A stretch of 54,807 nt of DNA from Candidatus Aminicenantes bacterium (GCA_046538375.1 JBKHJA010000002.1:1-54807); one strand, 5' to 3'. Positions 8,493 to 54,807 are shown, counted from the first letter of the stretch. Notes: generated by a model not told the origin, from the letters alone. Numbers and translations: made by a program.

Positions 8493-8545
8493 ATCTTTGA
8501 TGAAGAAACAATCAAAGTCATTGTTTTGGCCTTTTGGCATCAGGC

Positions 8546-9460: not shown

Positions 9461-9493
9461 CCTTCCATCTCCGTCCGCTTTTGATTTTCTCCT

Positions 9494-9522: not shown

Positions 9523-9526
9523 GACC

Positions 9527-9598: not shown

Positions 9599-9614
9599 AG
9601 TCAGTGGAAGCGGG

Positions 9615-9643
9615 TTGACAACCTCTGGCATGAAGAGTAATTT
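9615..9643 (+). promoter_or_regulatory. sigma70-like promoter candidate for the DUF362 gene
   Basis: TTGACA-N17-TAATTT. It is very close to the start codon (GTG 9649 / ATG 9658), so the transcript would have almost no leader. Confidence 0.3.
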
Positions 9644-9648
9644 TCTAG

Positions 9649-10548: not shown

Positions 10549-10606
10549 TGGTGGAGTTCAATCCTTTTGGCTTTTGCTTACGGGCCACAAGCTTTATGGT
10601 GCTAAA

Positions 10607-11728: not shown

Positions 11729-13860
11729 TTAATTTTCTTCCTCCCTTTCTTCTTGGATTCCTTGCTCTCTCTTTCCAGATCTTCCTGTTGAGAGAGTTCT
11801 CTGTCCATTTTTACGGCAACGAAATAACGTTCGGCCTTATCCTTGCCTGCTGGCTGCTGTGGGGTGGGGTGGGCAGCATCTCCGTCTCAAAGGCGAAGTT
11901 CGATACTGAAAAGCTCCCTTATATCTATTACGCCATTATTATTCTCTATCCTCTTTCCCTGGTGGGACTTCGATTTTCCCGCTTTATCCTGGGCCATCTT
12001 CCGGGAGAAATCACCGGTGTCATCTCCATCCTGATTTTCTCGTTTTCTGTCACCTTTTTGGTCAGCCTGCCGTTGGGAATGCTGTTTGTGTTCAATACTC
12101 ATTTCCAGAAAGGAAACCTTTCTCGAGTTTACTTCTTGGAGTCTGCTGGCTCAGCCTTTGCCGGATTGGTGGTATATCTTGTCTTTATCCCTGTCTTTCC
12201 CAACTGGAAAGGAGCGGCAATCATCGCTGCGTCAGCGGCTGTGCTTGTCTTTTTCTCTTTTGGAGAGAGAAAAAACAGGCTTTTCCTTATTTTTATACTC
12301 CTGTATTTAACTCTGTTCAGCCTGTTTGATTTTCCCAGCCAACAAATTTTCTGGAGGCCTTTCCATCTGGTAGAGAGCAGGGATACTCCTTATGGAAAAC
12401 TTCAAATCCTTAGAACTCAAGAACAGATCTCTTTGTATAACAACACTCTCATCAACTATTCCTACCCCAATCTTTCTGCTGCCGAGGAATCTGTTCATTT
12501 TGCTCTTCTTCAAAAGCCTGAAGCAGAAAGGGTGCTTTTGGTGGGAGGCGGGGTGGGAGGAAGTCTGGGAGAGGTCCTAAAATACCCTCACGCCCAAGTA
12601 GATTATGTGGAACTCAATCCTGAAATGATCCATCTCTCCCTGAAATACCTCCCTGAGGAAGAACGTCAAATTTTTGACGATCCGCGTGTTCAGACTTTTT
12701 ATCAAGACGGAAGAGCATTTCTGACTCAAGTCCAGAAAAAATATCAAGTGGTCATCCTCAACCTTCCTGAACCAGCCACAGCCCAGATCAACCGTTTCTA
12801 CACCAAAGAATTCTTTCTCCTGGTCAAAGAAAAGCTCACCTCAGGCGGAGTCTTTTCTTTCCGGGTCCCTTCTGCAGAGAATTATATCAGTGCTGAACTC
12901 CAAAATTTCCTTTCTTCGCTTTATTTCACCCTGAGAGAGGTTTTCCCCGAGGTCAAGATCGTGCCCGGAGATACCAATATCTTTTTGGCCTCCTCCTCTC
13001 CCCTGACCATAGACTCTGATAAACTCAGCCAGAGGATCATTGATCTGAACCTCCAGACTACCTATATCAGTCCCCATCTTCTCTTCTCACGACTCAATCC
13101 TCTCAGAATCAGCCTGTTGAAGGACGCTGTTTCTGAAGGAAGGAAAATCATAAACCTGGATTTTGTTCCCATAAGCTATTTCTACAGTTCTGTGTTATGG
13201 AGCAGCCAGTTTAGGGGTTTGGAGAAAAAAATATTTACCTTTTTGTCCCACCTGAGCCCTCGCTGGCTGCTTGACTTTCCCCTAGCTATTTTCCTCTGTA
13301 TTCTTGTTGTGTTGTGGATAGCCAGAAGAAGATCATCCTTTTTCCTGGTTCCTTTAGCGGTGATGGGTTTTACCACCATCGTTTTCGAAATCATGGTTAT
13401 CATTTCTTTCCAGACTATTTTTGGATATCTTTATCATAGAATCTCCCTTCTTCTTGCTTCCTTCATGATCGGGTTAGCAGCAGGCGCCCTGCGAGGGAAA
13501 AAAAGGAAAAAGTTTGATTTCACTCGCCTTCTGGTCATCCAATCTGGGTTCATACTGGTTGTTCTGCTCTTTTATGTGTGTCTACAAATTTCTCCTCCAG
13601 AAATATTGTTTTTTGTGTTTCTGTTTTCTGTCGGATTTCTGGGAGGTGATTTGTTTGTGGTTTCCAATCATCTTTTCCTAAAACTGAAAAAAAACTATGG
13701 TTTGGGTTACGGCTTGGATCTGCTGGGCTCTTTTTTGGGAGCTCTAGCCGCTTCTTCGTTCTTGATTCCGCTGGTGGGACTGCCCCTTTTGCTGAAATAT
13801 CTTTTTCTCTTTAACTCTTTTTGCTTTCTTTTTTTGGTGGGCGGCCTTGCAAGACGATGA
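11719..13860 (+). CDS. membrane-fused spermidine-synthase-like (aminopropyltransferase-fold) protein
   Basis: About 7 N-terminal and about 6 C-terminal hydrophobic helices flank a soluble domain with VLLVGGGVGGSLGEVLK...VDYVELNPEM. TTG start is uncertain. Confidence 0.75.
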   Translation: MGLINFLPPFLLGFLALSFQIFLLREFSVHFYGNEITFGLILACWLLWGGVGSISVSKAKFDTEKLPYIYYAIIILYPLSLVGLRFSRFILGHLPGEITGVISILIFSFSVTFLVSLPLGMLFVFNTHFQKGNLSRVYFLESAGSAFAGLVVYLVFIPVFPNWKGAAIIAASAAVLVFFSFGERKNRLFLIFILLYLTLFSLFDFPSQQIFWRPFHLVESRDTPYGKLQILRTQEQISLYNNTLINYSYPNLSAAEESVHFALLQKPEAERVLLVGGGVGGSLGEVLKYPHAQVDYVELNPEMIHLSLKYLPEEERQIFDDPRVQTFYQDGRAFLTQVQKKYQVVILNLPEPATAQINRFYTKEFFLLVKEKLTSGGVFSFRVPSAENYISAELQNFLSSLYFTLREVFPEVKIVPGDTNIFLASSSPLTIDSDKLSQRIIDLNLQTTYISPHLLFSRLNPLRISLLKDAVSEGRKIINLDFVPISYFYSSVLWSSQFRGLEKKIFTFLSHLSPRWLLDFPLAIFLCILVVLWIARRRSSFFLVPLAVMGFTTIVFEIMVIISFQTIFGYLYHRISLLLASFMIGLAAGALRGKKRKKFDFTRLLVIQSGFILVVLLFYVCLQISPPEILFFVFLFSVGFLGGDLFVVSNHLFLKLKKNYGLGYGLDLLGSFLGALAASSFLIPLVGLPLLLKYLFLFNSFCFLFLVGGLARR

Positions 13861-40888: not shown

Positions 40889-42244
40889 GTGGATAAAAAG
40901 AGGGAAACTCCAGAACTTCTAGAAGATTATTCACTCCAATCCGTTCCCTTAAACAGAAGAAAATCCTGGATCAACCTGGCTGTGATCTGGATAGGGATAG
41001 CGGTGGTCATGTCAGCCATTTTCCGGGGGATGATGATCGGCCTGGGCCTAGGAAAAATATCCAGCGTGATTTTCTCATATCTCCTGGGAGAAATCATCCT
41101 CATTGCTATGATGGGCTTTACCGGTTTCATCGGAGCTAAAACAGGATTTTCCACACCTCTAATCGCCAATTTCTCTTTCGGCCGCCTGGGCGCCATCCTC
41201 ATTTCCCTATCCATCGCTTTTTCCTTGATCGGGTGGTTTGGGGTTCAGGCCGCATTTTTTGCCCGCACCATCCAATTCTACTTTGGTACTCATCTTTCTC
41301 TGCCTCTCCTTTCTTTCTCCTGCGGAATTTTGATGATGATTCCAGCTATCTTCGGTATTCGAGGCTTAAGTGTTTTGAGCTGGATGGCTTCACCGTTTAT
41401 GGTTTTGATCTTTTTATGGGGAATCATAAAGATGGGTTTTCAATTCCTCCCTTCCCCGTGGTTAGTTTCACTGGCTCTCCACCATAAACCCGATCCTTAT
41501 CCTTTGACTTTAGGAGCAGCCGCTTCCATTGTAGCAGGAGGATTTATAGTCGGCGCTACCACCAGCGCTGATATCTTCCGTTATGCCAAACCCCGGCTAA
41601 AAGACATCTTCTCTGCTGCAATATTAGCCATGCTGTGCAGCGCCTTTCTCCATCTGGTGGGTTCTATCTTGGCCATGAATACAGGACTCTACCACGAGAG
41701 GCTTCCTGAACTCATCATCGGCCAGCAATACCTGGGACTGGGATTTGTGGGATTCCTGGTGCTCCTGCTGGCTCAATGGACCACTAATGACAGCAATATA
41801 TATTCCTCAGTGCTGGCATTAAACAATATTTTCAGAGTAAAACGCTGGAAAATCACCGTCATGGCCGGTATTTTTGCCTCCCTTCTCGCCGCCTTCGGTA
41901 TTCTGGAAAGACTTGAACTTTTCCTTGTTATCCTCACTGTGAGTATTGGCCCCATAGGGGGCATATTCATCTGCGATTACTATTTGCTGAAAAGGTTAAG
42001 AAAAAAGAATTTCAGACAGAAATCCTTTTCCAAAATAAGCTATAAGGCTTTAGGCGTTTACATGGTTTCTTTTCTTATCGGCTGGACTACTTCCGGCCAT
42101 CCCTTCACCATCCGAATTTTCCCTTTTTCTGTATTTGCCTTCAACGGCATAATCTCATCTATTTTTCTTTATTATCTGGTTATGAAAATTTTTCCTGACA
42201 AGGAGTCAAACCATGGCTTTAAAACAAGTGATGGAAGTTTATGA
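40889..42244 (+). CDS. NCS1-family (purine-cytosine/hydantoin-type) permease
   Basis: About 12 TM helices, 451 aa, and an N-terminal segment ...SLQSVPLNRRKSW.NLAVIWIG typical of CodB/NCS1 carriers. GTG start is uncertain. Confidence 0.7.
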   Translation: MDKKRETPELLEDYSLQSVPLNRRKSWINLAVIWIGIAVVMSAIFRGMMIGLGLGKISSVIFSYLLGEIILIAMMGFTGFIGAKTGFSTPLIANFSFGRLGAILISLSIAFSLIGWFGVQAAFFARTIQFYFGTHLSLPLLSFSCGILMMIPAIFGIRGLSVLSWMASPFMVLIFLWGIIKMGFQFLPSPWLVSLALHHKPDPYPLTLGAAASIVAGGFIVGATTSADIFRYAKPRLKDIFSAAILAMLCSAFLHLVGSILAMNTGLYHERLPELIIGQQYLGLGFVGFLVLLLAQWTTNDSNIYSSVLALNNIFRVKRWKITVMAGIFASLLAAFGILERLELFLVILTVSIGPIGGIFICDYYLLKRLRKKNFRQKSFSKISYKALGVYMVSFLIGWTTSGHPFTIRIFPFSVFAFNGIISSIFLYYLVMKIFPDKESNHGFKTSDGSL

Positions 42245-43154
42245 TCTTCTGGAAACTCCAAACATAGAAAAAGGAGAAATCCAAGATTTTTTCACCCAAA
42301 AAGGCCTTGACCGATCAGAAACACAATTTCAGAGGGTCAAAGAAGATAAGGGAGAAACCCAGTTTGTGAACATTCATATCAAAGGAAAGGAAGGATATTC
42401 GGAGGCAGGAGAAGCTCCCACCTTGGGAATAATCGGCCGTCTCGGAGGAATCGGCGCCAGACCGCATAAATCCGGACTGGTTTCAGACGCTGATGGAGCC
42501 ATAACCGCTTTATCCGCTGCCGCCAAAATTGCCGACTTGAGGAACAAGGGAGATCAACTCACAGGTGATGTGATGGTAGCTACCCATCTCTGTCCCCACT
42601 CCCCTATCATCCCCCATGAACCTGTTCCTTTCATGGACGCACCGGTAGCCCTGGACACCATGAACCAATACGAAGTGGATGAACGGATGGATGCCATTCT
42701 CTCTGTCGACACCACCAAAGGAAACAGGATCATCAATTGCCGAGGATTCGCCATCTCAGCCACAGTCAAGGATGGGTATATCCTGCGGGTGAGTGAGGAT
42801 CTTTTGGACATCATGCAAACAGTTACCGGCAAACTGCCGGTTGTCTTCCCCATCACCACTCAAGATATCACTCCCTACGGGAACCAGATCTTTCATCTCA
42901 ACAGCATCCTCCAGCCAGCCGTTGCTACTCATGCTCCTGTTGTTGGTGTGGCGATTACGACTGAAGTGGCTGTTCCAGGATGTGCTACGGGAGCCAATCA
43001 TGCATTGGATATGGAAATGGCGGTCAGATTTGTGGTGGAAGTGGCTAAAGCTTTCGGTAGAGCCCAATGCTCTTTTTATGATGAGGAAGAATTCCAAAGA
43101 CTAACCTCTCTTTATGGATCCTTAGAACATTTGAAAACTCTGAGAAAAAAATAA
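42213..43154 (+). CDS. DUF1177 domain protein
   Basis: 313-aa soluble protein whose layout I recognise as DUF1177, a family usually found next to AroM-like genes and permeases. AAGGAG SD. Overlaps the permease end by 32 nt. Confidence 0.6.
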   Translation: MALKQVMEVYDLLETPNIEKGEIQDFFTQKGLDRSETQFQRVKEDKGETQFVNIHIKGKEGYSEAGEAPTLGIIGRLGGIGARPHKSGLVSDADGAITALSAAAKIADLRNKGDQLTGDVMVATHLCPHSPIIPHEPVPFMDAPVALDTMNQYEVDERMDAILSVDTTKGNRIINCRGFAISATVKDGYILRVSEDLLDIMQTVTGKLPVVFPITTQDITPYGNQIFHLNSILQPAVATHAPVVGVAITTEVAVPGCATGANHALDMEMAVRFVVEVAKAFGRAQCSFYDEEEFQRLTSLYGSLEHLKTLRKK

Positions 43155-43223
43155 AATGTCATTGCGAATCCTTCAGGGACCACGCAATCTCATAATCCTT
43201 AAATACAAAAAAGCAATTTTCTC

Positions 43224-43892
43224 ATGGATAAAATAAAAATCGGATTCATTACTATAGGCCAATCGCCAAGAAAAGACCTTATACCTGAAATCAAGCCTTT
43301 TCTGCTTACTCATATAGAAATTGTTGAATATGGCTTGCTGAACCATATGAGGAATGAGGAAATTGAAAACATGAGCCCAGAAGCAGATGAAATCCCTTTG
43401 GTTACACGCTTAAGAAACGGAAGCCAGGTTCAATTAGGCGAGAAGAAAATAGGCGAACTTTTGCCCAAAGCCATCGACTTAATGAAGATCAACATGGATG
43501 TGAATGCTGTGGCCGCCCTCTGTACTCATGATTTTCCAAAAATAAAATCGGCCTGTCCCACCATATTTCCTTATGATTATCTTCAATTTCTTATAAATTG
43601 TATATTAGAGCCAAGAAAACTCGGAGTGGTGATTCCTTTGGAAAATCAATTTGAAATGGCCAAGAAAAAATGGGGATCAGACAGGACTATTGTCGAAGTG
43701 AAATCTCCATACGCCGAAGATAAAACATGGGAAAAAATAGCAGAAAATTTTGCTCAAAAAGAAGCAGGAGCAATCCTTCTTGACTGTATAGGATATAAAC
43801 TAAAGGACAGGCAGGCTATACAAAGATCTATCAAAATCCCCACCCTTCTGCCAAGAACAATCCTTGCCTTCGCTATCAATCAGCTCTTTTAA
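43224..43892 (+). CDS. AroM-family protein (Asp/Glu/hydantoin-racemase-like fold)
   Basis: N-terminus KIGFITIGQSPRKDL is characteristic of AroM-like proteins. Length is 222 aa. Confidence 0.65.
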   Translation: MDKIKIGFITIGQSPRKDLIPEIKPFLLTHIEIVEYGLLNHMRNEEIENMSPEADEIPLVTRLRNGSQVQLGEKKIGELLPKAIDLMKINMDVNAVAALCTHDFPKIKSACPTIFPYDYLQFLINCILEPRKLGVVIPLENQFEMAKKKWGSDRTIVEVKSPYAEDKTWEKIAENFAQKEAGAILLDCIGYKLKDRQAIQRSIKIPTLLPRTILAFAINQLF

Positions 43893-43948: not shown

Positions 43949-45625
43949 CTAAGAGATTCTTTTTATGATAACCAGGGTCATGTCGTCCATTGGGTCAGTG
44001 CCTGCAGTAAAAGCATCCACTTCCTGTTGAATCTTTTCCACCAGTTTCTGGGCTGGAAGCTTGGAATGTTTTTGAATGAGCTTTATCAGTTTCTCCTCTG
44101 TGAATTCTGTGTTGTCTTTGCTCCGGCTTTCAGTTATTCCATCTGTGTACAGAAACGCCATCTCCCCTGGATTTAAGGCAATATCCTTTACTTCATAACG
44201 CGAAGAAGGAAACATGCCCAAGCACAAGCCGCAGCTCTCCAAGCGATGAATTTTCCCCTTCTTATCCAGAATAAGTGGTGGATTATGTCCGGCATTGACA
44301 AACTTCAATTCCCCTGTCTTTTTATTCAATTCTGTGTAGAAAAAAGTGATAAAACAACTGGGTGAAGAGCTGCGCTGGACAAAATCATTCAGCTTACAGG
44401 CCATCTCTTCCAATTTGTATTGAGCGTGAACTTCTGAATGAAGAGAAGCCCTTAAAGAAGCCATAAGAAGGGAAGCACTCACTCCTTTCCCGGAGACATC
44501 AGCGATAACTATCCCCAACCTGGAAGGATCTATAGCGATAAAATCATAATAATCGCCACCCACCTGATAGCATGGAACATTGGATCCGGCAATTTCATAA
44601 TTCTCAAGTTCTGGATTCTCTTTGGGAAGAAAGTCTTTTTGGATCTGGGCAGCAAGAGCCAGTTCTTTCTCCATTTTTTCCTTCTCTATGGATTCTTCAA
44701 AAAGCTTGGCATTTTCGATCTTGACTGCTGCAAGATTGGACAGAAGAGTCAACAGTCTTAAGTCATCATCTGAAAACTGTTCCAAATGAAGTATGCGGTC
44801 GGCATAGACAATGCCTATGATCTCTTTGTTGTTCCATAAAGGAACACACATGGCTGAATGGATGTTGGAGCCGACAATGCTCTGCTGCGATTTAAAACGG
44901 GTATCAGCCTGGGCATCGTGGGTGAGGATGGAGGAATGCTTATCCAGGGCCAGGTTGACTATACTCTGGCTCACCTGAATCTTCTGCTTTTTCAGGTTCT
45001 GGCTGTTTATCCTTACCACTTTAGGGATGAGCTGAGGAGGATGTCCTTCTTTGAGGATCAGAATCCCCCTGTCCATGGGAAGATTCTCACAGATGAGGTC
45101 CATGACATGGTCCAGGAGTTCGTTTAGAGGCTTGTGAAGAATAAGAGCCTTACTGACTTCACTGAGCACCGAAAATGCTTTGTGATCTGTCCTGATCCTC
45201 TCCAGATCAACTGGAGTAGGGGCAGCTTTCAGGGTAGTGTCGATATCCGGCTTTTTCAGGATTTCCTTGAGATTCATTATGGTGTTGATATTGGAAGCAG
45301 AAGAAGGAGTCTGGGTGACTTCAATGTTGGCTGCAAACTTTTTATCAAAGACCACCCTGGTGGAGCCTATAAGGACTTCATCTCCCTTTTTGAGTTCTTT
45401 TTCTGCCTGTATTCTTTTGCCGTTGAGGAAAGTTCCGTTTTTGCTTTTATTATCCCGAACCCCATATCCTTTTTCGGTGGGATAAAAAAAGGCATGATGT
45501 CCTGAAGAGAAAGGATCCGCAATGGAGATGTCGTTATCAGCGGAGCGGCCTATGGATATTTTTTTGTCCGGAAGGGTGAAGGTGAAATCCTCTCCTTCTT
45601 TCGGGTAAATGAACAGTTTAGGCAT
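43949..45625 (-). CDS. FHA - GAF - PP2C (SpoIIE/RsbU-type) serine phosphatase
   Basis: FHA region ISIGRSADNDISIADPFSSGHHAFF...NGTFLNG, a central GAF-like region, and a C-terminal PP2C region (GGDYYDF...IADVSGKGVSASL...TDGITE...DDMT). Length is 558 aa. Confidence 0.88.
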   Translation of the reverse strand: MPKLFIYPKEGEDFTFTLPDKKISIGRSADNDISIADPFSSGHHAFFYPTEKGYGVRDNKSKNGTFLNGKRIQAEKELKKGDEVLIGSTRVVFDKKFAANIEVTQTPSSASNINTIMNLKEILKKPDIDTTLKAAPTPVDLERIRTDHKAFSVLSEVSKALILHKPLNELLDHVMDLICENLPMDRGILILKEGHPPQLIPKVVRINSQNLKKQKIQVSQSIVNLALDKHSSILTHDAQADTRFKSQQSIVGSNIHSAMCVPLWNNKEIIGIVYADRILHLEQFSDDDLRLLTLLSNLAAVKIENAKLFEESIEKEKMEKELALAAQIQKDFLPKENPELENYEIAGSNVPCYQVGGDYYDFIAIDPSRLGIVIADVSGKGVSASLLMASLRASLHSEVHAQYKLEEMACKLNDFVQRSSSPSCFITFFYTELNKKTGELKFVNAGHNPPLILDKKGKIHRLESCGLCLGMFPSSRYEVKDIALNPGEMAFLYTDGITESRSKDNTEFTEEKLIKLIQKHSKLPAQKLVEKIQQEVDAFTAGTDPMDDMTLVIIKRIS

Positions 45626-45638
45626 CTTCCCTTACGCC

Positions 45639-45668
45639 ATTATAAGCGGAAGACAGGAAATATTTCAA
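45639..45668 (-). promoter_or_regulatory. sigma70-like promoter candidate for the phosphatase gene
   Basis: Minus strand reads TTGAAA-N18-TATAAT. It lies only about 14 nt before the ATG at 45625, so the leader would be very short. Confidence 0.3.
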
Positions 45669-45680
45669 CAAAATAGTAAT

Positions 45681-45803
45681 CCTTTCCATTTCCTTGATAG
45701 AGGGTGAGGGATGGGGGGTTGTCAGCACGCTAATTTTCCCCATCCCTCACCTTCTTTAATCAGTATATACTTTTATAATCATCACGGTTTTGGAGATACC
45801 CCC
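45681..45803. repeat. intergenic repeat family, copy B (most complete; contains a perfect 14-bp inverted repeat)
   Basis: The minus-strand core is CCCCCCATCCCTCACCCTCTATCAAGGAAATGGAAAGG (45720-45681). The hairpin is GGTGAGGGATGGGG-N21-CCCCATCCCTCACC (45703-45751). The distal arm is ATCACGGTTTTGGAGATACCCCC (45781-45803). Confidence 0.75.
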
Positions 45804-45856
45804 AAGAAAATAGTAAATATGCTTGTTCACGCAAGATAAAAAGCGTTGTTACAGGT

Positions 45857-48349
45857 TCAGCTTTTCTCCAAGGTTTTGTACAGCTTCCTGCATCTTCTCA
45901 CTTTATCTTCAAAAGGAAGATCATCGATAAGAGGAAGGAGAAACTCTTTTGTGTCTTTCTTTATCATGTTATCGAGAAGCTCCACAGAATAATCAATGGC
46001 CTTTTTTGTTCCCGCACAGATGTTTTGATAAGCCTTGATGATATCGTCATGAGGGTAGATAAGGCTGAGCAGTTCAAAAATCTGTTTGAGCAGTCCAGCC
46101 AAATTATTCTCTAAATGGGGAGCCAGAAGGGCTTTCTTCTTATCGCCTTTTATTTCATGCAGCTCCATCAAAACCAGATAACACTTTCTTATCTTCTGTA
46201 TGATCTCGCTTCTTATGATATTCTCTTGAAATTGAAGCTGAGGATGATTTGATCTCATTTTGTACATGGCTTCTATGATTTCAGCCTCCACCTCCTCCTG
46301 ATCTTTTCTCATTTCCATAGTTAACAAATCTGCTGCTCTCTGAGTTCCTATCCGGGATAAGATATCAGGAATGGCTTTCCGTAAACCAAGTTTTTCTTCC
46401 TGGTCTCCCAGATAATCCTTCAAGGTTCCTGCGATTTTCGTTCCGTACTTCACTAATGCCTTACTGGCTCCCCGCTGGGTGGAAGGCTTTTCCAACTGCT
46501 GGATTATGAGAGGAACAAACTCTCTTCTTTTCAGTTTTCCTGCACTCTCTACGGCATAACGGACAACATCTGGCGATTTATCCTTTAACAATTTACTGAG
46601 GTCATTTATGACCGGAGAGTTAGGATCCATCATGCCCAGAAGCTTGGCTGCTTCCATTCTTGAGACCTCATCTCCCTCCTCTTTCCTGCTGACAATTCTA
46701 TCTATATGCTCCTTCATCAACTCCTGGTAGACATCCAGAGACATGATTTCCTTGACCTGGGAATCCAGGGTTTCCTCATCCAGAGATTCATCCAGTTCCG
46801 GGATCAAGACTTCTCCATCCAACTCCAGAAGAGAATCCATGGAGCTGGCTCTGACCTCATCGGATTTTTGGGATATGATTTTTTTCAGCTCAGGGCTCAT
46901 TTTCCTGCTCTTTATCAGGTCAAACAGGTTCATGGCGTAAAGAACCGAACTCCTGTCTCTGCTGTGGAGGGTATCGAAAACCAGTTTGGCCATGTCCACA
47001 TCCATCTTTTCTCTTACAAATTTGTCAGCATCCTGCCATTTGATTCTCAATTTTTCCTTCACTATGCCCACATAATCCCTGTTGATCCTAACGATGAGAA
47101 AAATCCAGAGGGCAGTAAAAACTAGGGTGACGAAGCTCATCTGCCGGACAGAAAAATGCAAGACCGTAAAGAACAGAAGGATGAGAAGAGCACTGAAACC
47201 TTTGGCAAACTTGTTGATGAACATATCGATAAACACCTTGGCCCTGTACTTGACACCAGGAGAAACCGGAATATACAGGAGCTCTCTCACCGATTGGCTC
47301 AAAGAATGAGCCAGGCTCTTGTCTCCTCCTTTGATGACAACCGCCCAATAGATCAAGTAGGCCATGGGAACCAGAAAAATTGCCGCTGAACTTATCACTA
47401 AAAAGAAAGGAGCAATAAGAAGAGCCGTGCGCATGCCAAAATTCTTCAAAATGCGGCTGGTGGCTGAGACATGGAGAATGTAAGAAAAGACAAGCAGGGC
47501 GGTAAAAAAAGTCCCCAGAAAAGATGTCCGGGAATCTATTCCCGCGTAAATCCGTTCCACCACTGTGTTGAATTGAAAATCGACCAGGGTGGTGACCACG
47601 ATAGCAGAAGCCATGATTCCGGCCAGAGTCATCAAATAACGGTTTTTCTTCAACAAAAGAAAGCTCTCGCCATATCCAATCTTGGCCTTTCTTTTTTCTC
47701 TAGGCTTCTCTGTTTCTTCCTTTTTCTCCTCTTTCTCCTCAGGCTGAAATCTGTACACGGAATTGACGATGACCAGGCACACAAGCAGCATGACCGGACA
47801 AATCAAAAGAAGATCTTCTGTTCCCATAATCTGAGCCAGACAAGAGGCCAGCACAGAGCCAGCGATCCCTCCCAGAAGTCCTCCGCTGACAAAAAAGCCC
47901 ACCAGCCTTTTGGCCTGACGAGGATTATAGATATCATTGACTAAAATCCAGAATTGAGTGACTGATGCGGCAACAAAGATATCTGACCAGAACCAATAGA
48001 TCATGGAAATCCAGGGCCACTGACTCTTGAACAACCACCAGAAAAGGATGAGATTGGTGATAAAAAATGCAAGAGACAGGGAGATGAAAAGCTGGCGCCT
48101 CAGAGTGTGCAGCAGCTTGGAATTAAGAGTGACCACAAATCCGATCAAAAGAGCTGTCAAAAGATAAGCATAGGGAAGTCTTTCCGAGGTCAGCCATCCC
48201 AGGAAAAGAGAGACCTTAACCGGTTTTATTATGTACGCTGGACAAGTGATGAGGAAAAAATAGAAAAACATGAGCAGAGAAGGGATGGTTTCCCCGGGCC
48301 GTATATCCACCAGCCGGGATAAAACTTTATACAAAGGATTTTCATCCAT
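45857..48349 (-). CDS. TLC/Npt-like (ATP:ADP-antiporter-family-like) membrane transporter fused to a C-terminal HEAT-repeat domain
   Basis: The N-terminus VDIRPGETIPSLLMFFYFFLITCPAYIIKPVK resembles TLC-family starts and is followed by about 11-12 TM helices. The C-terminal ~400 aa consist of helical HEAT/PBS-lyase-like repeats (SPDVVRYAVESAGKL...). Length is 830 aa. Confidence 0.6.
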   Translation of the reverse strand: MDENPLYKVLSRLVDIRPGETIPSLLMFFYFFLITCPAYIIKPVKVSLFLGWLTSERLPYAYLLTALLIGFVVTLNSKLLHTLRRQLFISLSLAFFITNLILFWWLFKSQWPWISMIYWFWSDIFVAASVTQFWILVNDIYNPRQAKRLVGFFVSGGLLGGIAGSVLASCLAQIMGTEDLLLICPVMLLVCLVIVNSVYRFQPEEKEEKKEETEKPREKRKAKIGYGESFLLLKKNRYLMTLAGIMASAIVVTTLVDFQFNTVVERIYAGIDSRTSFLGTFFTALLVFSYILHVSATSRILKNFGMRTALLIAPFFLVISSAAIFLVPMAYLIYWAVVIKGGDKSLAHSLSQSVRELLYIPVSPGVKYRAKVFIDMFINKFAKGFSALLILLFFTVLHFSVRQMSFVTLVFTALWIFLIVRINRDYVGIVKEKLRIKWQDADKFVREKMDVDMAKLVFDTLHSRDRSSVLYAMNLFDLIKSRKMSPELKKIISQKSDEVRASSMDSLLELDGEVLIPELDESLDEETLDSQVKEIMSLDVYQELMKEHIDRIVSRKEEGDEVSRMEAAKLLGMMDPNSPVINDLSKLLKDKSPDVVRYAVESAGKLKRREFVPLIIQQLEKPSTQRGASKALVKYGTKIAGTLKDYLGDQEEKLGLRKAIPDILSRIGTQRAADLLTMEMRKDQEEVEAEIIEAMYKMRSNHPQLQFQENIIRSEIIQKIRKCYLVLMELHEIKGDKKKALLAPHLENNLAGLLKQIFELLSLIYPHDDIIKAYQNICAGTKKAIDYSVELLDNMIKKDTKEFLLPLIDDLPFEDKVRRCRKLYKTLEKS

Positions 48350-50849
48350 ATGGTTTAAAACCAGGATAAGTCTTCAAGAGACTGCGGAATCTTTTTACTC
48401 TTTCCTCCTCAGAGAGGTCCTCAACAACAGGAAGGATGATATCTTTCAATTCTTTTTTCAAGATGTTATCAAGGAGTTCCACTCCATAACCTACCGAATC
48501 TTTGGTTCCATCCTTCACACTCTGATATGCCCTGATGATGTCCTCGCGGGGATAAACAAGTTCCAAAAATTTGAAAATATCCGAGAAGGCTGCGGCCAGA
48601 TTTCTGGCAGTCTTCTCTCTCATTTCCTCTTTTTTATCCTCATACCGTGAATCATGGGACTGGATGATCATCTGATAATATTTTTTCACTTTTTGGATTA
48701 TTTTTGCTTCTATCACTTCTCTAAAGAACAGGATATCAGTATTCTCAGCCCGAATTTTGTCCAGAGCTTCGATAAGTTCCTCTTCCAGATCTTCGCTGTT
48801 TTCCGCCAATTCCCGGCACAATAAATCTGCTGCATCTTGACTGCCGATTCGGGCTAAAACCGAGGCTGCGGCTCTTCGCACCTCAATATTCTCTTCCGGG
48901 TCCCCCAGATAATCTGACAGAGTGCCCACAATTTTTGAGCCGTACTTTTTGAGCGCAGCACTGGCGTCCTCTCTGGTGACAGGATTCTCTAATATCTTGA
49001 TTATGGATGGAATATATTCTTTTCGTTTCAGTCTGGCCGCACTTTCCACTGCATATCTGCCCACTTCCGGTGATTCGTCATCAAGAAGCTCTTCCAGATT
49101 GTCGAGCAGAGGCGAAGACTGATCCATCAAGCCCATGGCCTTGGCCACTTCCATCTTGGCTGTCTCTGCTTCTCTCCCGGTCTCGGTCACCACTTTTCCC
49201 ATATAGTCCTTCATCACCTTCTCATAAACATCCAGCGACATGATTTCTTTGACATTTTTCTCCAGGTCTTCTCCCTCCAAATACTCTTCCATCTCCGGAT
49301 ACCAGGTGGTTTCTTCGACTTCCAGAAGTGTTCCCAGCGAAGCCGCTCTTATCTCATCTGATTTGTAAGAAATCAATTTTTTGATCTCTGGAGTGAGTTT
49401 GTCCTGCTTTATCAAATCGAAAAGATGCATGGCATACAGGACTGAACTCCGATTTTTACTCTCCAAAGTATCAAACACCAGCTTGGTGTAATCCATATCC
49501 ACTTTTTCTGCCAATATTTTGTCAGCCCGGTCCCACTTCATTTCCAGATTTTGTTTGACAGTCCCCACGTATTCATTGCTGATTTTAAGGTTGAGTAAAA
49601 TCCAACCCATGATAAAAACAGCGGATGCCAAAGACACCAGCCGCACCGGCGGTATCCCCAGAGGAAAGAAAAGCAGGATCATAAGTATCACCGCTCCTAG
49701 ACCTTTGGCAAACCGATTGAGGAACATATCTATGAAAATCTTGGCTTTGTACTTGAGTTGGGAAGAAACAGGAATATACAGAAGCTCTCTCACGGATTGA
49801 TTGAGGGAATAAGAGAGGCTTTTGTCGCTTCCCTTTAGCAGGACGGCGAGATAAATAGTGATGAATACAGCGATTCCCAATGAACAGGCAAGGAGGACTA
49901 TTGGAAAAAGCATCAAAGCCATGCGGATACCGTAACGCTTTATAAAACCGCTGGTCATGAAAAGCTGAAGAAAAAAAGGAAGAATTAACAGCCCGGCATT
50001 AAAGTATCCAAAGAAAGAGGTTAAGTTTCCGCTTACCGAAGGCGTATCTTTGATGACCTTGTTGAATTGAAAGTCTATCAGGGTGGAAACGATCATGGTG
50101 ATGGCCACCATACCCGCCATAAGCTTCAGGTAATAATTCTTTCTTACTGTATGGAAACACTCCCCAAATCCCACTTTGGTTAAGTTCTTCTCCCTCTCCC
50201 TGAATTCTCCCTGGCTTTTAGGGGTACCAGGCTGCCCCCTCTTTTCCAGGATAAATATCCCATACACCACCATGACACACAAAGCCAGAAGCCCGCAGGA
50301 AATTAGCAGAAGATGGTGAGGTGTTTCAGAGGGAGCTAAAAATCCCGCCACCATTCCTCCAGCCACTCCTCCCAATATGCCCCCGCTTCCGAAGAAGCCA
50401 ATCAGCCTTTTGGCTTCTCTGGGATTGAACACATCGTTGACCAACATCCAGAATTGAGTCATTAAGACTAAAATAAAAATGTTGGCCCATATCCAAAAAA
50501 CGAGAGGCAGCCAATCCCAACCCAGGGGGAAAAGAAGCCAGAAAATGAGTGCGTTGAGCAGGAAAAATAAGAGGCTGGAAATGAACAAAATTTGTCTTTT
50601 AATTCTGACCTGGAGTTTTGAATGCAAGGCCACCACAAAGCCCATAAGAACGGCTGTCAACAAATAGGCTAAGGGAAGATTGACCGCTCCCAGTGTTTCT
50701 AAATAACTGGCATTTCTCAAAGATTTTATGATGGTGTGAGGGGCGGTGATCAAGAAAAAATAAAAGAAAAGAAGAAATGCCAGCGAAGCTTCGCCGGGTT
50801 TAATCTCGACTACAGGAGAAAGGATTTTCTGAAGACGGTTTTTTGCCAT
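48342..50849 (-). CDS. TLC/Npt-like transporter::HEAT-repeat fusion, paralogue of 45857-48349
   Basis: Co-linear similarity to the neighbour over the full length (VEIKPGEASLAFLLFFYFFLIT, SVLYAMHLFDLIK, VKEIMSLDVY, SPEVGRYAVESAARL). Length is 835 aa. 8-nt overlap with the downstream paralogue. Confidence 0.6.
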   Translation of the reverse strand: MAKNRLQKILSPVVEIKPGEASLAFLLFFYFFLITAPHTIIKSLRNASYLETLGAVNLPLAYLLTAVLMGFVVALHSKLQVRIKRQILFISSLLFFLLNALIFWLLFPLGWDWLPLVFWIWANIFILVLMTQFWMLVNDVFNPREAKRLIGFFGSGGILGGVAGGMVAGFLAPSETPHHLLLISCGLLALCVMVVYGIFILEKRGQPGTPKSQGEFREREKNLTKVGFGECFHTVRKNYYLKLMAGMVAITMIVSTLIDFQFNKVIKDTPSVSGNLTSFFGYFNAGLLILPFFLQLFMTSGFIKRYGIRMALMLFPIVLLACSLGIAVFITIYLAVLLKGSDKSLSYSLNQSVRELLYIPVSSQLKYKAKIFIDMFLNRFAKGLGAVILMILLFFPLGIPPVRLVSLASAVFIMGWILLNLKISNEYVGTVKQNLEMKWDRADKILAEKVDMDYTKLVFDTLESKNRSSVLYAMHLFDLIKQDKLTPEIKKLISYKSDEIRAASLGTLLEVEETTWYPEMEEYLEGEDLEKNVKEIMSLDVYEKVMKDYMGKVVTETGREAETAKMEVAKAMGLMDQSSPLLDNLEELLDDESPEVGRYAVESAARLKRKEYIPSIIKILENPVTREDASAALKKYGSKIVGTLSDYLGDPEENIEVRRAAASVLARIGSQDAADLLCRELAENSEDLEEELIEALDKIRAENTDILFFREVIEAKIIQKVKKYYQMIIQSHDSRYEDKKEEMREKTARNLAAAFSDIFKFLELVYPREDIIRAYQSVKDGTKDSVGYGVELLDNILKKELKDIILPVVEDLSEEERVKRFRSLLKTYPGFKPYG

Positions 50850-50881
50850 AGAATGGCTCTATAACAGGACTTCAGCGGGAT

Positions 50882-51229
50882 TTAGTCCTTAAAAAAGCTA
50901 CCCAGGGCCGTTTCCTCATTATCGAAAATCTCAAGAACATTGGTGAGCATGGTCACCTGGAAGACAAGATAGAGTTTCTTGGAAATTTTTGCCAGCTTCA
51001 GCTTCCCCCCCAAATTGTTGGCCGATATATAGCTGGCTAAAATCTCCCCTACCCCGAAGCTGTCTATAAATTCAACATTCTGGAAATTGAGAAGAATATT
51101 CCTTTTGCCGCCTTCCAACTGCTCCTTAACCAGTTGATGAAGAGTCACATCTTTTATATCCGAACGCCTGATTTCACCTTCTATGTCAAAGATCACCACG
51201 TCGTCTTTCTCTCTGGTGTTTATGACCAT
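50882..51229 (-). CDS. STAS-domain protein (anti-sigma-factor-antagonist type)
   Basis: From ATG 51229 (GAGGAGAA SD) the product is MVINTREKDDVVIFDIEGEI....NILLNFQNVEFIDSFGVGEIL, of 115 aa. This is the typical SpoIIAA/RsbV layout, with the conserved DS(F/S)G phosphorylation-loop position reading DSFG. Upstream track codons are rejected. Confidence 0.8.
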   Translation of the reverse strand: MVINTREKDDVVIFDIEGEIRRSDIKDVTLHQLVKEQLEGGKRNILLNFQNVEFIDSFGVGEILASYISANNLGGKLKLAKISKKLYLVFQVTMLTNVLEIFDNEETALGSFFKD

Positions 51230-51481
51230 TTTCTCCTCGCCTCTCTTCTTTAAGCTTTTATCAGAAGAAATATGTAAAGTCAAATATCCCCCCTTTAAGC
51301 ATTTCCTCACTAAATTTCCTGGATGATATTTCACTCTACATCCGCTCTTATGAATCAAGAAATGCCCATAAAAACGGCCAATATATAGACCTGCCTGGTT
51401 TATTCTGATATAAATGTTAATGAAAAGAGTTGACTTGAAGGGGAGAAACTATAATTTTACAAGCTTAGGATACAACCTGGG

Positions 51482-52567
51482 ATGAGCACCATGATCAGAT
51501 CAACAAGAAAAGTCAAAAAATTTACAGCTCTCCTCCTTTCTGTTTCCCTCATCACTGTTTTTCTTTATGGCAGCAGCACACAATGCGTATGGAGTGATAT
51601 CGAGAAGATTGTGGCTGTGGGAGATATTCATGGCGATTACAAAAACTTTGTAAAAATCTTAAAGGGGACAAAACTGATCGATGAACAGCTCCATTGGACA
51701 GGGGGAAAAACTCATCTCGTCCAAACCGGTGATATCATGGACAGAGGGCCTGATGCCAAAAAAGTGTTTGACCTTTTGATGAAACTGGAGGAAGAAGCAG
51801 AAAAAACAGGGGGAAAAATTCATGTTTTGATCGGAAACCACGAAGAGATGAACATCACGGGTATAGCCTTTGACTACGCCGGCTATGTCACTGTGGAGCA
51901 GTTTGTTTCCTTTCTTCCTGAAAAATACAGAAAAAAGAAAAAGAAGGAATTTACAGAAAAAACGGGAGAAAATGAGATAGATCAGGATAAGTATTTAGAT
52001 AACAGCTTGAAGAAATATTGGCTGGAGCTTATGAAGGAAAAATCAGCCCGAAAGAAGTACGTGGATAATTTCAATGACAAATATGGAAAATGGATTCTTT
52101 CGCACAATGCGGTAATAAAAATCAACCACGTCATATTTGTTCACGGAGGTATCAGCAGGCAATTCTCCACCTGGAAAATAGAGGATATAAATGAGCAGCT
52201 TCAAGAGGAACTCTGCTTTCTGCAAAAAGCAGCCAAACGTCCCCGGTCATTCAGCGGTTCTTATAATCCAAAAATTGTCTACAAGAGCGAAGGGCCTCTC
52301 TGGTACAGGGGTCTAGCTCTTGAGGATGAACAGAATCTCAAACAAGAAGTGGATAAAATTTTGGAGAATCTGGGAGCAAAATACATGGTCATTGCCCACA
52401 CCCCACGTGCTGGCAGCAGGATAGTCTCCGAAGAGTACATGAGCCGATTCGATGGAAGGATATGGATAATCGACACAGGAATATCAGATTATTACGGCGG
52501 ATTCTTGAGCGCTTTGATCATCGAAAACGAAAATTTCACTCTGTGGAGGCCTGAGCATGAAAAATAA
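51482..52567 (+). CDS. secreted PPP-family metallophosphoesterase (Ser/Thr phosphatase-like)
   Basis: Signal peptide FTALLLSVSLITVFLYGSS. Motifs GDIHGD, GDIMDRG, GNHE and VHGG in canonical order. Length is 361 aa. Confidence 0.82.
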   Translation: MSTMIRSTRKVKKFTALLLSVSLITVFLYGSSTQCVWSDIEKIVAVGDIHGDYKNFVKILKGTKLIDEQLHWTGGKTHLVQTGDIMDRGPDAKKVFDLLMKLEEEAEKTGGKIHVLIGNHEEMNITGIAFDYAGYVTVEQFVSFLPEKYRKKKKKEFTEKTGENEIDQDKYLDNSLKKYWLELMKEKSARKKYVDNFNDKYGKWILSHNAVIKINHVIFVHGGISRQFSTWKIEDINEQLQEELCFLQKAAKRPRSFSGSYNPKIVYKSEGPLWYRGLALEDEQNLKQEVDKILENLGAKYMVIAHTPRAGSRIVSEEYMSRFDGRIWIIDTGISDYYGGFLSALIIENENFTLWRPEHEK

Positions 52568-53471
52568 AGAGACCCCAGCGGTGATGTTTTCTTTGCTTTT
52601 GACAAGCGGCCTCTTCTTTCACTGTCACTCCTCCAATATCAACCAAGAAGAGGAGGAACGAAAAAAAATAGAACATTACTTAAAAACGGCTGAAATTGTA
52701 ACTGTGGAAAAAGATGAACAGGCCGGGAGAACAGCTCCCTGGAGAATAAAATTGGATGACGGGAAAAAAGCGCGTCCAGGTCTTTTCAAGCATTTAGACC
52801 GGAGAAGACCTTCCCTTTTTGCTGACAGCTACAAATATGAATTAGCCGCTTATGAACTGAATAAACTTCTTCATCTCAACATCGTTCCTCCTGTGGTGGA
52901 AAGAGAAATAGAGGGCAAAAAAGGAGCTCTTCAGTTGTTCATCCAGGATGCCCTACCAGAAAGCAACCGGAAAAGAAGAAACATTGCTCCTCCTCGCTTG
53001 GAAGACCACCAAAACATCCTGGAGATGATCAACGTCTTCGAGAACCTGGTTTATGATGAGGAGTGTTTTGACGCCGAGGATACGTTGATAGACAGGAAAG
53101 AGTGGAAAGTGTGGCGGGTGGATTTCTCCATGGCCTTCTCCCCTACCTCAGGTCTAATTCCCGGCTGCAGAATCAGCCGCTGTTCCAGGAAGCTCTATCA
53201 AAATCTGGTGGAGCTGGACGCAGATACAGTGAGAGCTGAGCTTAAGCCTTATCTTAACCCACAGGAAATCGATGCTGTTCTGAAAAGGAAGAGCATCATC
53301 ATAGATAAAATCAAAAAATTGATTGAGGAAAAAGGAGAAGATTCAGTCCTCTTCCTTCAAAAGCATAAAGGAGGGCTTTCATGGAAAAAACATCCTCAGG
53401 TCTCATTCATAAGACACTCAGAATTTTCACTGTTATCCACCCTGACGAGGTCCCCACAGCGCTGCTTTTGA
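52557..53471 (+). CDS. secreted/anchored hypothetical protein, possibly with a PI3/4-kinase- or Fam20-like kinase fold
   Basis: N-terminal hydrophobic segment AVMFSLLLTSGLFF follows K-rich residues. The segment YKYELAAYELNKLLHLNIVPPVVERE resembles the AAFHLDR-LGF--VPP helix-loop of Fam20/PI4K-type kinases as I recall it. A later segment LVYDEE....TLID....WRVDFSMAF is reminiscent of a catalytic-loop/DFG arrangement. The fold assignment is speculative. Confidence 0.5.
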   Translation: MKNKETPAVMFSLLLTSGLFFHCHSSNINQEEEERKKIEHYLKTAEIVTVEKDEQAGRTAPWRIKLDDGKKARPGLFKHLDRRRPSLFADSYKYELAAYELNKLLHLNIVPPVVEREIEGKKGALQLFIQDALPESNRKRRNIAPPRLEDHQNILEMINVFENLVYDEECFDAEDTLIDRKEWKVWRVDFSMAFSPTSGLIPGCRISRCSRKLYQNLVELDADTVRAELKPYLNPQEIDAVLKRKSIIIDKIKKLIEEKGEDSVLFLQKHKGGLSWKKHPQVSFIRHSEFSLLSTLTRSPQRCF

Positions 53472-54757
53472 CCGTTAATGTTTTTTTGCTCCTCACAGCC
53501 TATTACATCATAAAACCAGTGAGAGATGCCTTGATGCTGGAAAGCTGGCCCCCGGAGGTCAAAAGCTATCTTTCTGCGGCCATAGCTGTCCTGCTTATTT
53601 TTGTGGTTAAAGTCTTCAGCAGGATTGCCTCCAGTTTTCCGCGGCAGAAGTTGGTTACCTGGGTAACACTCTTTTTTATTTCCAACTTGGGACTTTTTTA
53701 TATTTTGTATTTATCAGGTGTGGGCTCTGGAGCTATGGGAATTATCTTTTTTTTATGGGCAGGAATCTTTAACTTGATTGTTATCGCCCAGTTCTGGGGC
53801 TTCGCTAATGATGTGTACACCGAGGATGAAGGAAAGCGGCTTTTTCCTTTGGTGGCTTTCGGGGCCACTTTTGGAGGCTACGCCGGAGGAAAGATAACCG
53901 ATTCTCTGGTGGTGCTCCTGGGAATCTTCCAGCTCATGCTGGTATCAGGAGCCATATTGGGGATTTGCATTCTTTTCACCTGGATCATTCATCGACGGGA
54001 GATCAGGAGAATCCATGTTAAACCCGTTAAACCCATGGAGAAAGAAGAATTCAAACCAGAAGAACAGGAAAAGCCTCTTGAAAAGGGAGGAGCATTTCAA
54101 CTGCTTTTTAAAAACCGATATCTTCTTTACATCGCCTTTTTTGTGCTGCTTATGAATTTCATCAACACCAATGGTGTTTTTATGCTGGACACAGTGGCCC
54201 AGGATGCTGCCGCTAAAGCCGTAGAAACAGGCACAACAGGAGGACTGAGTAAAGGACAATTCCTGACTAAATTTTATGCTGGGTTTTACAATATCATGAA
54301 TATCTACGCCATGTTTATCCAGCTGTTCGTGGTCTCCAGGATTTTCAAGTGGTTTGGAGTCAGAGTGGCTATCTTCTTTTTACCTGCCCTTGCTCTGGGG
54401 GGATATTTTTGTATCAGTTTGGGTGCATTTCTGGTCCTGGTGAAATGGGTCAAGGCCTTTGAGAATGGAACCGATTATTCTCTTATGAACACCACCCGCC
54501 ATTCCCTTTTTCTTATAACCACCAGGGAAGAAAAATACAAAGCTCAAGCTGTCACCAAGACTTTTTTCCACCGGTCAGGCGATGTTCTTTCGGCGGTGAT
54601 GGTTTTCCTGGGTACAACTTATCTGGCATTCAATGTGGAAAAATTCGCTGCCTTCAACGTGGTTCTGGTGGTTATTTGGATATTCATCGGCATTTTAATC
54701 TTCCGAGAACACAAAAGACTGTCCGAAGCCAGAAAATTTGCTCAGGTGGCCCTTTAA
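53381..54757 (+). CDS. TLC/Npt-like transporter (membrane half only), third paralogue
   Basis: The N-terminus LIHKTLRIFTVIHPDEVPTALLLTVNVFLLLTAYYIIKPVRD aligns with the first residues of the two HEAT-fused paralogues. About 11-12 TM helices, 458 aa. Confidence 0.65.
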   Translation: MEKTSSGLIHKTLRIFTVIHPDEVPTALLLTVNVFLLLTAYYIIKPVRDALMLESWPPEVKSYLSAAIAVLLIFVVKVFSRIASSFPRQKLVTWVTLFFISNLGLFYILYLSGVGSGAMGIIFFLWAGIFNLIVIAQFWGFANDVYTEDEGKRLFPLVAFGATFGGYAGGKITDSLVVLLGIFQLMLVSGAILGICILFTWIIHRREIRRIHVKPVKPMEKEEFKPEEQEKPLEKGGAFQLLFKNRYLLYIAFFVLLMNFINTNGVFMLDTVAQDAAAKAVETGTTGGLSKGQFLTKFYAGFYNIMNIYAMFIQLFVVSRIFKWFGVRVAIFFLPALALGGYFCISLGAFLVLVKWVKAFENGTDYSLMNTTRHSLFLITTREEKYKAQAVTKTFFHRSGDVLSAVMVFLGTTYLAFNVEKFAAFNVVLVVIWIFIGILIFREHKRLSEARKFAQVAL

Positions 54758-54783
54758 CCTGGATTATTCATGAATAATCCAGG
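54758..54783 (+). terminator. perfect 26-nt palindrome immediately after the stop codon (terminator-like hairpin without a U-tract)
   Basis: CCTGGATTATTCA|TGAATAATCCAGG starts 1 nt after TAA 54755-54757. It is followed by CGTACCTGC, with no T-run. Confidence 0.4.
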
Positions 54784-54807
54784 CGTACCTGCATTATACA
54801 GAAATCA

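Follow-up and report, generated by a model that had tools for sequence, protein, structure and literature searches.

The periplasm is viewed in textbooks as a compartment without ATP and hence without kinases, and dedicated secreted kinases (Fam20C and its relatives) are known from the secretory pathway of eukaryotes. Does a three-gene locus at the end of a 54,807-nt stretch of DNA from Candidatus Aminicenantes bacterium (GCA_046538375.1, JBKHJA010000002.1:1-54807) encode phosphorylation outside the cytoplasm? We refer to this whole stretch as the window, and positions are counted from its first letter. An initial annotation of the window had described three chained plus-strand open reading frames (ORFs), here called g1, g2 and g3, as a secreted phosphatase of the PPP family, a secreted kinase-like protein and a nucleotide carrier that could supply the kinase with ATP; the three ORFs were confirmed, with overlaps of 11 nt (g1/g2) and 91 nt (g2/g3). 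Each component comes from a known superfamily, and the combination did not turn up in the literature searched. The component identities and the gene linkage are solid: comparison of many loci showed that predicted exported phosphatases, Fam20-like proteins and NTT-family carriers make up a conserved, repeatedly re-assembled gene module. The reading of the whole as an Aminicenantes cluster for phosphorylation outside the cytoplasm, which would be fed by NTT carriers and reversed by the phosphatase, is in our view a serious candidate that falls a little short of probable.

The kinase-like fold of g2 was the point that the initial annotation itself considered weakest, and it holds. The g2 sequence alone gave no Pfam match (the Fam20C model stayed below threshold) and, as a single sequence, no match in the PDB. 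An AlphaFold2 (AF2) model computed from 33 homologues reached a predicted local distance difference test score (pLDDT) of 83, with values above 90 in the core. A Foldseek search with this model placed Fam20A at the top (PDB 5wrr, E 2.6e-8, query TM-score (TMq) 0.60) together with Fam20C (E 2.8e-7), followed by PI4KII (PI4KIIbeta, E 1.2e-7) and then by PI3K/PI4KIII. The profile of the g2 clade, compared with the PDB, matched Fam20A with E 5.5e-4, and Fam20A, Fam20C and Fam20B together with E 5.5e-4 to 8e-3; the profile of the wider family matched Fam20A with E 6.4e-14, Fam20C with E 5e-10 to 5e-9 and Fam20B with E 6e-9. The profile alignments to Fam20 include the motifs A.FK.. and EIAA(F/Y).LD..L....VPP in the N-lobe and, in the C-lobe, FD.LI.N.DR..... 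and.(I/L)D...(A/G)F, i.e., the catalytic and metal-binding loops, as well as the C-terminal helix; the two g2 segments that had been singled out earlier as reminiscent of such kinases correspond in these alignments to the alphaC helix and the C-lobe of Fam20. As judged from these profiles and from the predicted structure, g2 is a homologue of the Fam20 secretory-pathway kinases with a bilobal kinase-like fold. Assignment of g2 to the SCO1664 family was considered and rejected, because the NCBIfam match (E 5e-6) is far below the cut-off and Fam20 is the closer relative. The bacterial Fam20-like family comprises 3,060 representatives at 50% identity with E ≤1e-3, of which 458 have E ≤1e-30, and is essentially unannotated; its named members belong to Aminicenantes and other Acidobacteriota, including Thermoanaerobaculia, with one Latescibacteria-labelled protein.

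All family members from 166 loci were aligned to one hidden Markov model, and the catalytic columns were compared. The wider-family consensus, 'FDNLI.N.DRN.GN.LID..W..W.IDHTRAF', corresponds, according to this alignment, to the DRH..N catalytic loop and the DFG-like Asp of PI3/4-kinases and Fam20, and its counterpart in the g2 clade is 'FENLVYDEECFDAEDTLI..WKVWRVDFSMAF'. The g2 of the window has '..EECFDAED' in place of the catalytic-loop 'DRN/DRH', with E169/C170 at the catalytic Asp column. Among 83 g2-type proteins, this column is occupied by C in 43, S in 11, R in 8 and D in 7 cases (non-D in 76/83), the Asn position holds Asp in 82 (D175 in the window g2), the DFG-like Asp is present in all 83 (D189), the lysine column contains K in 73 and R in 10, and the alphaC Glu position contains E in 58, D in 12 and G in 11. 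The catalytic Asp column is D in 129 of the 130 downstream Aminicenantes paralogues, where K, E, D, R, D and H are kept in 129-130 proteins, and in all 89 non-Aminicenantes relatives. The proposal that g2 is the kinase whose marks g1 removes is not supported, because the catalytic-loop Asp-Arg, kept in all canonical relatives, is lost in g2.

The window g2 retains K78, E95, D175 and D189 (the beta3 Lys, alphaC Glu and metal-binding positions, as assigned from sequence columns only), the mean column identity in the g2 clade is 57%, and, judging from the alignment, purifying selection on the clade is strong. Taken together, the retention of putative residues for nucleotide and metal binding, the loss of the catalytic base and the purifying selection suggest a pseudokinase profile, conceptually like that of Fam20A beside Fam20C; thus, g2 is probably a nucleotide-binding pseudokinase or regulator and not an active kinase. 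It should be noted that the 'FKPM' lysine column varies in the non-Aminicenantes loci (L084-L166; R 46, K 17, H 13, Q 10), which are otherwise canonical, and this variability suggests that the nucleotide-binding lysine of the family may lie elsewhere. The g2 clade, otherwise Cys-poor, also has a near-invariant pair of cysteines, C204 and C209 ('PGC.I.RCS'), which could form a disulfide, as would fit an extracytoplasmic site, or a metal site.

The first gene of the chain, g1, is, by its sequence matches, a genuine Shelph-type PPP phosphatase. The phosphoesterase motif set reported for it was located at GDIHG (aa 47-51, nt 51620-51634), GDIMDRG (aa 83-89, nt 51728-51748) and GNHE (aa 118-121, nt 51833-51844), with VHGG at aa 220-223, and the Pfam Metallophos model matched with E 2e-14 (54.8 bits versus a cut-off of 21.5). 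Among solved structures, the cold-active protein-tyrosine phosphatase from Shewanella (PDB 1V73/2Z72/2ZBM, E 1.4e-31) was the closest match by a wide margin; Rhilph (5vjv, E 9.5e-4) and BSU1 (E 8.5e-3) matched more weakly, and the NCBIfam models for ApaH/PrpE gave weak matches. Since the Shewanella enzyme is the closest solved relative, g1 would fall into the 'Shelph' family of bacterial PPPs as Andreeva and Kutuzov described it (PMC535813). It aligns with Shelph phosphatases over both halves of the catalytic domain and has all PPP motifs, but differs from the Shewanella enzyme by a 70-residue insertion (~aa 128-197) and from Shelph phosphatases in being genomically coupled, or fused in relatives, to a Fam20-like domain. 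The N-terminus of g1 has a charged, K/R-rich stretch followed by a hydrophobic stretch, consistent with a signal peptide.

To judge export, we used a simple heuristic with a threshold of 2.0, which looks for a hydrophobic segment that follows K/R near the N-terminus. Such a segment was found in 103/120 proteins of the g2 clade, in 116/149 family representatives and in 90/116 proteins of the canonical clade, so the export signal proposed for g2 is general across the Fam20-like family; the soluble housekeeping proteins of the window have no such N-terminus. The AF2 model of g2 contains a continuous helix over residues 6-44, and the protein may be held by an uncleaved N-in/C-out anchor. Two catalytically canonical Fam20-like paralogues that lie downstream in relatives (p2 and p3) carry classical signal peptides ending in ..A/G|Q, and distant family members have AxA sites or lipoboxes. 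In the fusions of phosphatase and Fam20-like domain that we examined, the phosphatase part carries the signal sequence at its N-terminus, and the match to the kinase-like domain sets in at profile position ~29-40, past the hydrophobic segment; this layout suggests that the two domains act together in one compartment outside the cytoplasm. The Cys that follows the hydrophobic segment of g2 lacks conservation, and the idea that g2 is a lipoprotein was rejected for this reason.

The third gene, g3, had been described as a TLC/Npt-like carrier, and both the Pfam TLC model and the predicted fold bear this out. With a cut-off of 21 bits, Pfam TLC (PF03219) scored 43.5 for g3, and 58.3 and 68.1 for two larger carriers encoded upstream, NTT-HEAT A and NTT-HEAT B, the genes of which overlap by 8 nt; the NCBIfam model for NTP/NDP exchange transporters (TIGR00769) gave no match to g3 and 48.6 bits for NTT-HEAT A versus a cut-off of 387. 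The AF2 model of g3 (predicted TM-score 0.81) has 12 long helices around a disordered central loop. The top four Foldseek matches are solved NTTs (E 1.5e-9 to 8e-8, TMq up to 0.70), namely AtNTT1 with ATP, AtNTT1 with ADP/Pi, and Chlamydia pneumoniae NTT1 in inward-open and outward-open states; NorA follows (4.7e-7), and generic transporters of the major facilitator superfamily (MFS) rank lower than the NTTs. The g3 profile and AtNTT1 also have a common motif, FWGFAN...DE.K..(F/Y)PL. Thus, g3 is assigned, from profile and model, to the NTT/TLC family of carriers.

Synteny of the three genes in other genomes was surveyed, and the triad is conserved and recurs in other gene orders and as fusions. 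The region is, as judged from gene content, the left part of a conserved Aminicenantes cluster, in which the order is <- FHA-GAF-PP2C, <- NTT-HEAT B, <- NTT-HEAT A, <- STAS, -> Shelph phosphatase, -> g2-type Fam20-like, -> NTT (g3 type), <- SdiA-regulated/phytase-like lipoprotein, -> p2, -> p3, <- RsbW-like HATPase_c_2. In 80 species-level Aminicenantes genomes, the phosphatase adjoins or is fused to the g2-type gene in 78 (fused in 19), a TLC gene is no further than 5 kb away in 69 (39/45 among loci with at least 5 kb of flank), further Fam20-like paralogues are nearby in 70, and a STAS gene is found within 8 kb in 48.

Outside Aminicenantes, the same partners meet in other arrangements. For example, a metagenome-assembled Thermoanaerobaculia genome (L084) has the order Fam20-like -> <- NTT-HEAT <- Metallophos, and at least 6 different orders and orientations of the trio were seen in 80 loci of the canonical clade from metagenomes. 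Of such loci, 22 have flanks of 2 kb or more on each side; a TLC gene was found within 5 kb in 14 of these 22 and both partners in 10. The loci also served as an internal control: the 261 kb of sequence that lie no more than 3 kb from a Fam20-like gene hold 23 TLC genes, and the 226 kb further out hold 1, i.e., a ~20-fold local enrichment. Metallophos-Fam20-like fusions with canonical catalytic motifs are present in distant relatives. The fusions, the varied gene orders and the TLC enrichment indicate that the linkage is more than inherited synteny. The non-Aminicenantes carrier is always of the NTT-HEAT type, with a C-terminal extension of ~470-490 aa, and is closer to the upstream NTT-HEAT pair of the window than to g3; the STAS/PP2C set is absent from the trio there, with 0 STAS genes in the metagenome loci. 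Therefore, the proposed tie of the carrier to kinase and phosphatase stood in part: g3 belongs to the Aminicenantes operon, whereas across lineages it is the NTT-HEAT type (45857-50849 in the window), and not the HEAT-less g3, that accompanies the other two genes. In the same way, the initial interpretation as a whole was borne out for the component identities, the export signals and the synteny, but not for g2 as the active kinase or g3 as the travelling carrier.

These observations allow a revised model. In this model, g3 and the NTT-HEAT antiporters would move cytoplasmic ATP out and periplasmic ADP (and inorganic phosphate, Pi) in; the exported ATP would feed the canonical Fam20-like kinases, which would act on exported or envelope substrates, and the g1 phosphatase would reverse the kinase marks. 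The g2 protein, translationally coupled to g1, would target or regulate the phosphatase or, alternatively, serve as an activator of the canonical paralogues, in the way that Fam20A activates Fam20C. One cycle of kinase and phosphatase would yield exactly ADP + Pi, which is the NTT counter-substrate pair. That Pi is an NTT counter-substrate rests on the title of a PDB entry ('ADP/Pi bound AtNTT1') and on what Trentmann et al. 2008 are reported to have found. Pi co-transport was not supported in the 2007 paper on PamNTT1. In Aminicenantes, a cytoplasmic partner-switching set (FHA-GAF-PP2C, STAS and RsbW-like kinase) would probably regulate the carriers, and the HEAT domains together with this set would gate the supply. 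Taken separately, the ATP-export mechanism is tentative, and our estimate for it ranges from doubtful to nearly even.

Several points weigh against this model. The outer membrane passes solutes of the size of ATP, so periplasmic ATP would leak. The similarity of g3 and the NTT-HEAT carriers to characterised NTTs is remote (~17% identity to AtNTT1, and below the NCBIfam exchanger cut-off), and their substrate could be something else. Most non-Aminicenantes relatives have R, H or Q at the 'FKPM' lysine column, which is unusual for active kinases, and the window g2 scores 1.95 in the export heuristic, just under the threshold. Some Fam20-like genes stand alone (L085, L086), and NTT-HEAT proteins also occur in many bacteria without a known Fam20-like partner (PMC5381601).

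Among the alternatives, the one that survives best, although we consider it unlikely, retains the carriers as suppliers of nucleotide and changes the substrate: the Fam20-like enzymes would phosphorylate an envelope glycan or lipid, and the phosphatase would trim or relocate the phosphate, as in a repair or maturation pair. Fam20B, a glycosaminoglycan xylosylkinase, and PI4KII, which acts on a lipid head group, are among the best sequence and fold matches, fusion of a kinase to a phosphatase is a typical trait of enzymes acting on one and the same substrate, and the Aminicenantes cluster has the SdiA-regulated/phytase-like beta-propeller lipoprotein as a conserved member; however, the closest characterised relative of g1 is a protein-tyrosine phosphatase, and the conserved neighbourhood contains no glycosyltransferase or lipid-biosynthesis genes.

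It is clearly less probable that the locus serves scavenging, with NTT-type carriers that import external nucleotides and with the phosphatase and kinase-like proteins capturing or processing extracellular nucleotides or organophosphates so that they can be taken up. Aminicenantes are generally known as degraders of organic matter in sediments, metallophosphoesterases include nucleotidases, and g1 weakly matches ApaH/PrpE. Such a role would leave unexplained why canonical paralogues with intact DRH/N and D motifs are retained; in addition, ATP uptake by an exchanger costs the release of ADP, with no net gain of phosphorus, and nucleotide triphosphates are scarce in free form in sediments, although the characterised NTTs are all importers in their natural setting (PMC5381601, PMC1951785).

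A purely regulatory link, in which NTT-HEAT proteins act as sensors or transceptors, communicate with STAS/PP2C/RsbW through their cytoplasmic HEAT part and are co-regulated with the exported enzymes without supplying ATP, ranks marginally lower and is also improbable: outside Aminicenantes the carrier persists in the trio without STAS and PP2C, and the Aminicenantes operon itself gains a HEAT-less carrier, g3. This explanation would account for the position of the Aminicenantes NTT-HEAT genes between STAS and FHA-GAF-PP2C, with the RsbW-like kinase closing the cluster, and would agree with the role of HEAT repeats as protein-interaction modules and with NTT-HEAT-cNBD fusions elsewhere, which suggest regulation (PMC5381601). 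Finally, we regard it as highly improbable that the Fam20-like proteins are secreted effectors or toxins acting inside other cells on the ATP of the target, with the carrier and phosphatase as functionally unrelated neighbours, since no secretion-system genes occur in the conserved neighbourhood, the hosts are free-living sediment and soil lineages, and the ~20-fold local TLC enrichment and the phosphatase fusions would be left unexplained, even if signal peptides are compatible with secretion and the majority of known secreted bacterial kinases are effectors, e.g., in the Legionella kinome (PMC9758233).

The features discussed here, and the remaining content of the window, are collected in the table.

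Table. Positions (nt, from the first letter of the window) of the three genes, their neighbours and other features.
Feature	Position	Strand	Description
g1	51482-52567	+	361 aa; Shelph-type PPP-family metallophosphatase, export predicted
g2	52557-53471	+	304 aa; Fam20-like, predicted pseudokinase; conserved core ~aa 35-267
g2 read-through tail	53358-53471	+	not conserved; source of the 91-nt overlap with g3
g3	53381-54757	+	458 aa; HEAT-less NTT/TLC-family carrier, predicted MFS fold
STAS-domain anti-sigma-antagonist-like protein	50882-51229	-	115 aa; Pfam STAS E 4e-12, TIGR00377; divergent from g1
NTT-HEAT carrier A	48342-50849	-	835 aa; Pfam TLC E 8e-16 and HEAT_2 E 1e-14; position conserved in relatives
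NTT-HEAT carrier B	45857-48349	-	830 aa; Pfam TLC E 9e-19 and HEAT_2 E 2e-14; synteny conserved
FHA-GAF-SpoIIE (PP2C) phosphatase	43949-45625	-	SpoIIE E 2e-52, FHA E 6e-18, GAF E 2e-14
Block of FHA-GAF-PP2C, two NTT-HEAT and STAS genes	43949-51358	-	conserved as a block beside the operon
Permease, DUF1177 and AroM genes	40889-43892		consecutive genes for a cytosine/purine-type permease, DUF1177 and AroM, directly upstream of the cluster
Spermidine-synthase-like protein	11719-13860		713 aa; hydrophobic N-terminal region fused to a spermidine-synthase-like domain
Remaining part of the window	1-40835		ordinary chromosomal context, including GlyQ/GlyS, heterodisulfide-reductase-like CCG/FAD/4Fe-4S proteins, AI-2E transporter, DUF6599 and an ABC-2/GldG-like/DUF4340 set

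The junction of g1 and g2 is of the ATGA type, 'cctgagcATGaaaaaTAA', as is found in translational coupling. The scan of the operon for promoters and terminators was uninformative, and since no internal terminator or promoter stood out, g1, g2 and g3 look like a single operon. The g3 start at 53381 is preceded, 8 nt upstream, by an AGGAGG-type ribosome-binding site, and full-length g3 homologues (455-470 aa) cover its N-terminus, including the first 50 residues, so the overlap between g2 and g3 is real at the ORF level. The source gene call for g3 (P0386, 407 aa) begins at Met-52, leaving out 53381-53533, and shows no overlap with g2; this start removes the first helix of g3, which is conserved in all homologues. 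The ~400 homologues of g2 are ~267 aa long and terminate at '...EKGEESVLFS', a spacer of 170-390 nt separates g2 from g3 in relatives, and the last ~37 aa of the window g2 are poorly modelled (pLDDT <50 for residues 271-304 in AF2). This tail is a lineage-specific read-through. A functional meaning of the 91-nt overlap was rejected, as it results from lineage-specific loss of the g2 stop codon and of the intergenic spacer.

The window ends ~25-50 nt past g3 (54758-54807), and so does the contig in a second assembly (L167) made from this organism; because both stop just after g3, the canonical Fam20-like paralogues are not visible in the window genome. In relatives, the downstream part, with the beta-propeller lipoprotein, p2, p3 and the RsbW-like kinase, lies at 8624-11972 in locus L001 and at 8535-11956 in locus L002. 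The maximal STAS ORF of the window extends to 51358, and the 115-aa call is the one made in relatives and in the second assembly. FHA-GAF-PP2C adjoins NTT-HEAT B, and this is conserved in relatives. Together with the RsbW-like kinase of relatives, the block in the window amounts to a complete partner-switching set. Similar to RsbU/RsbV/RsbW modules, FHA-GAF-PP2C, STAS and HATPase_c_2 proteins are present, here flanking the carriers in Aminicenantes; the difference is that no sigma factor is visible in the cluster, and the output may be the HEAT domain of the carrier. The tRNA and Rfam scans of the window found no features.

What emerges from the cluster is a large family of predicted exported Fam20 homologues in bacteria, unannotated so far and repeatedly linked to exported PPP phosphatases and ATP/ADP-translocase homologues. 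The broadest version of the model, namely that periplasmic Fam20-type phosphorylation, powered by NTT and NTT-HEAT carriers that export ATP for ADP + Pi, operates in several lineages of free-living bacteria (where named, Aminicenantes, other Acidobacteriota including Thermoanaerobaculia, and one Latescibacteria-labelled protein), is possible but doubtful. If true, the carriers would be the first dedicated source of ATP for the periplasm of bacteria, and the system would be a case of extracytoplasmic ATP-dependent phosphorylation in bacteria; it would also provide a function for the NTT-HEAT clade, explain why NTT-type carriers, regarded as hallmarks of energy parasitism, are common in free-living bacteria, place a bacterial root under the Fam20 family of secretory kinases and pseudokinases, and offer small bacterial models (a core of ~230 residues) of the Fam20 kinase/pseudokinase pair.

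The closest analogue of the bacterial trio is eukaryotic. In the endoplasmic reticulum and Golgi, the ATP/ADP(AMP) antiporter SLC35B1/AXER is paired with lumenal Fam20C, i.e., a kinase in an ATP-free compartment is combined with an ATP antiporter. It should be noted that SLC35 is unrelated to NTT/MFS, so the resemblance is one of analogy and not of homology, and that the bacterial case is drawn from gene neighbourhood alone. With the NTT/TLC transporters (AtNTT1, Chlamydia Npt1/NTT1 and Rickettsia Tlc), g3 has in common the TLC membership, the predicted 12-helix MFS fold and the motif; however, the present host is free-living, and the physiological direction would be ATP out, not in. The two upstream genes of the window have the same architecture as the NTT-HEAT fusions of free-living bacteria, whereas g3 is without HEAT; Major, Embley and Williams (2017) found this architecture to be widespread in free-living bacteria, leaving it without an assigned function and leaving open why NTT-type carriers are common there (PMC5381601). 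No prior description of the combination was found in the literature searched for bacterial Fam20 homologues or periplasmic kinases, and a kinome survey treats FAM20 as eukaryote- or Metazoa-specific (PMC9758233).

The bacterial proteins share with Fam20 the best fold match, profile-level homology in both lobes and an N-terminal export signal, but their core of ~230 residues, compared to ~400, is without the Fam20 insertion domains. The likeness extends to the pairing of paralogues, as a degenerate one (the g2 type) stands alongside canonical ones, like Fam20A alongside Fam20C. The two pseudokinases would have arrived at this state differently: g2 lost the catalytic Asp, whereas Fam20A is reported, in the papers on its structure, to have lost the alphaC Glu.

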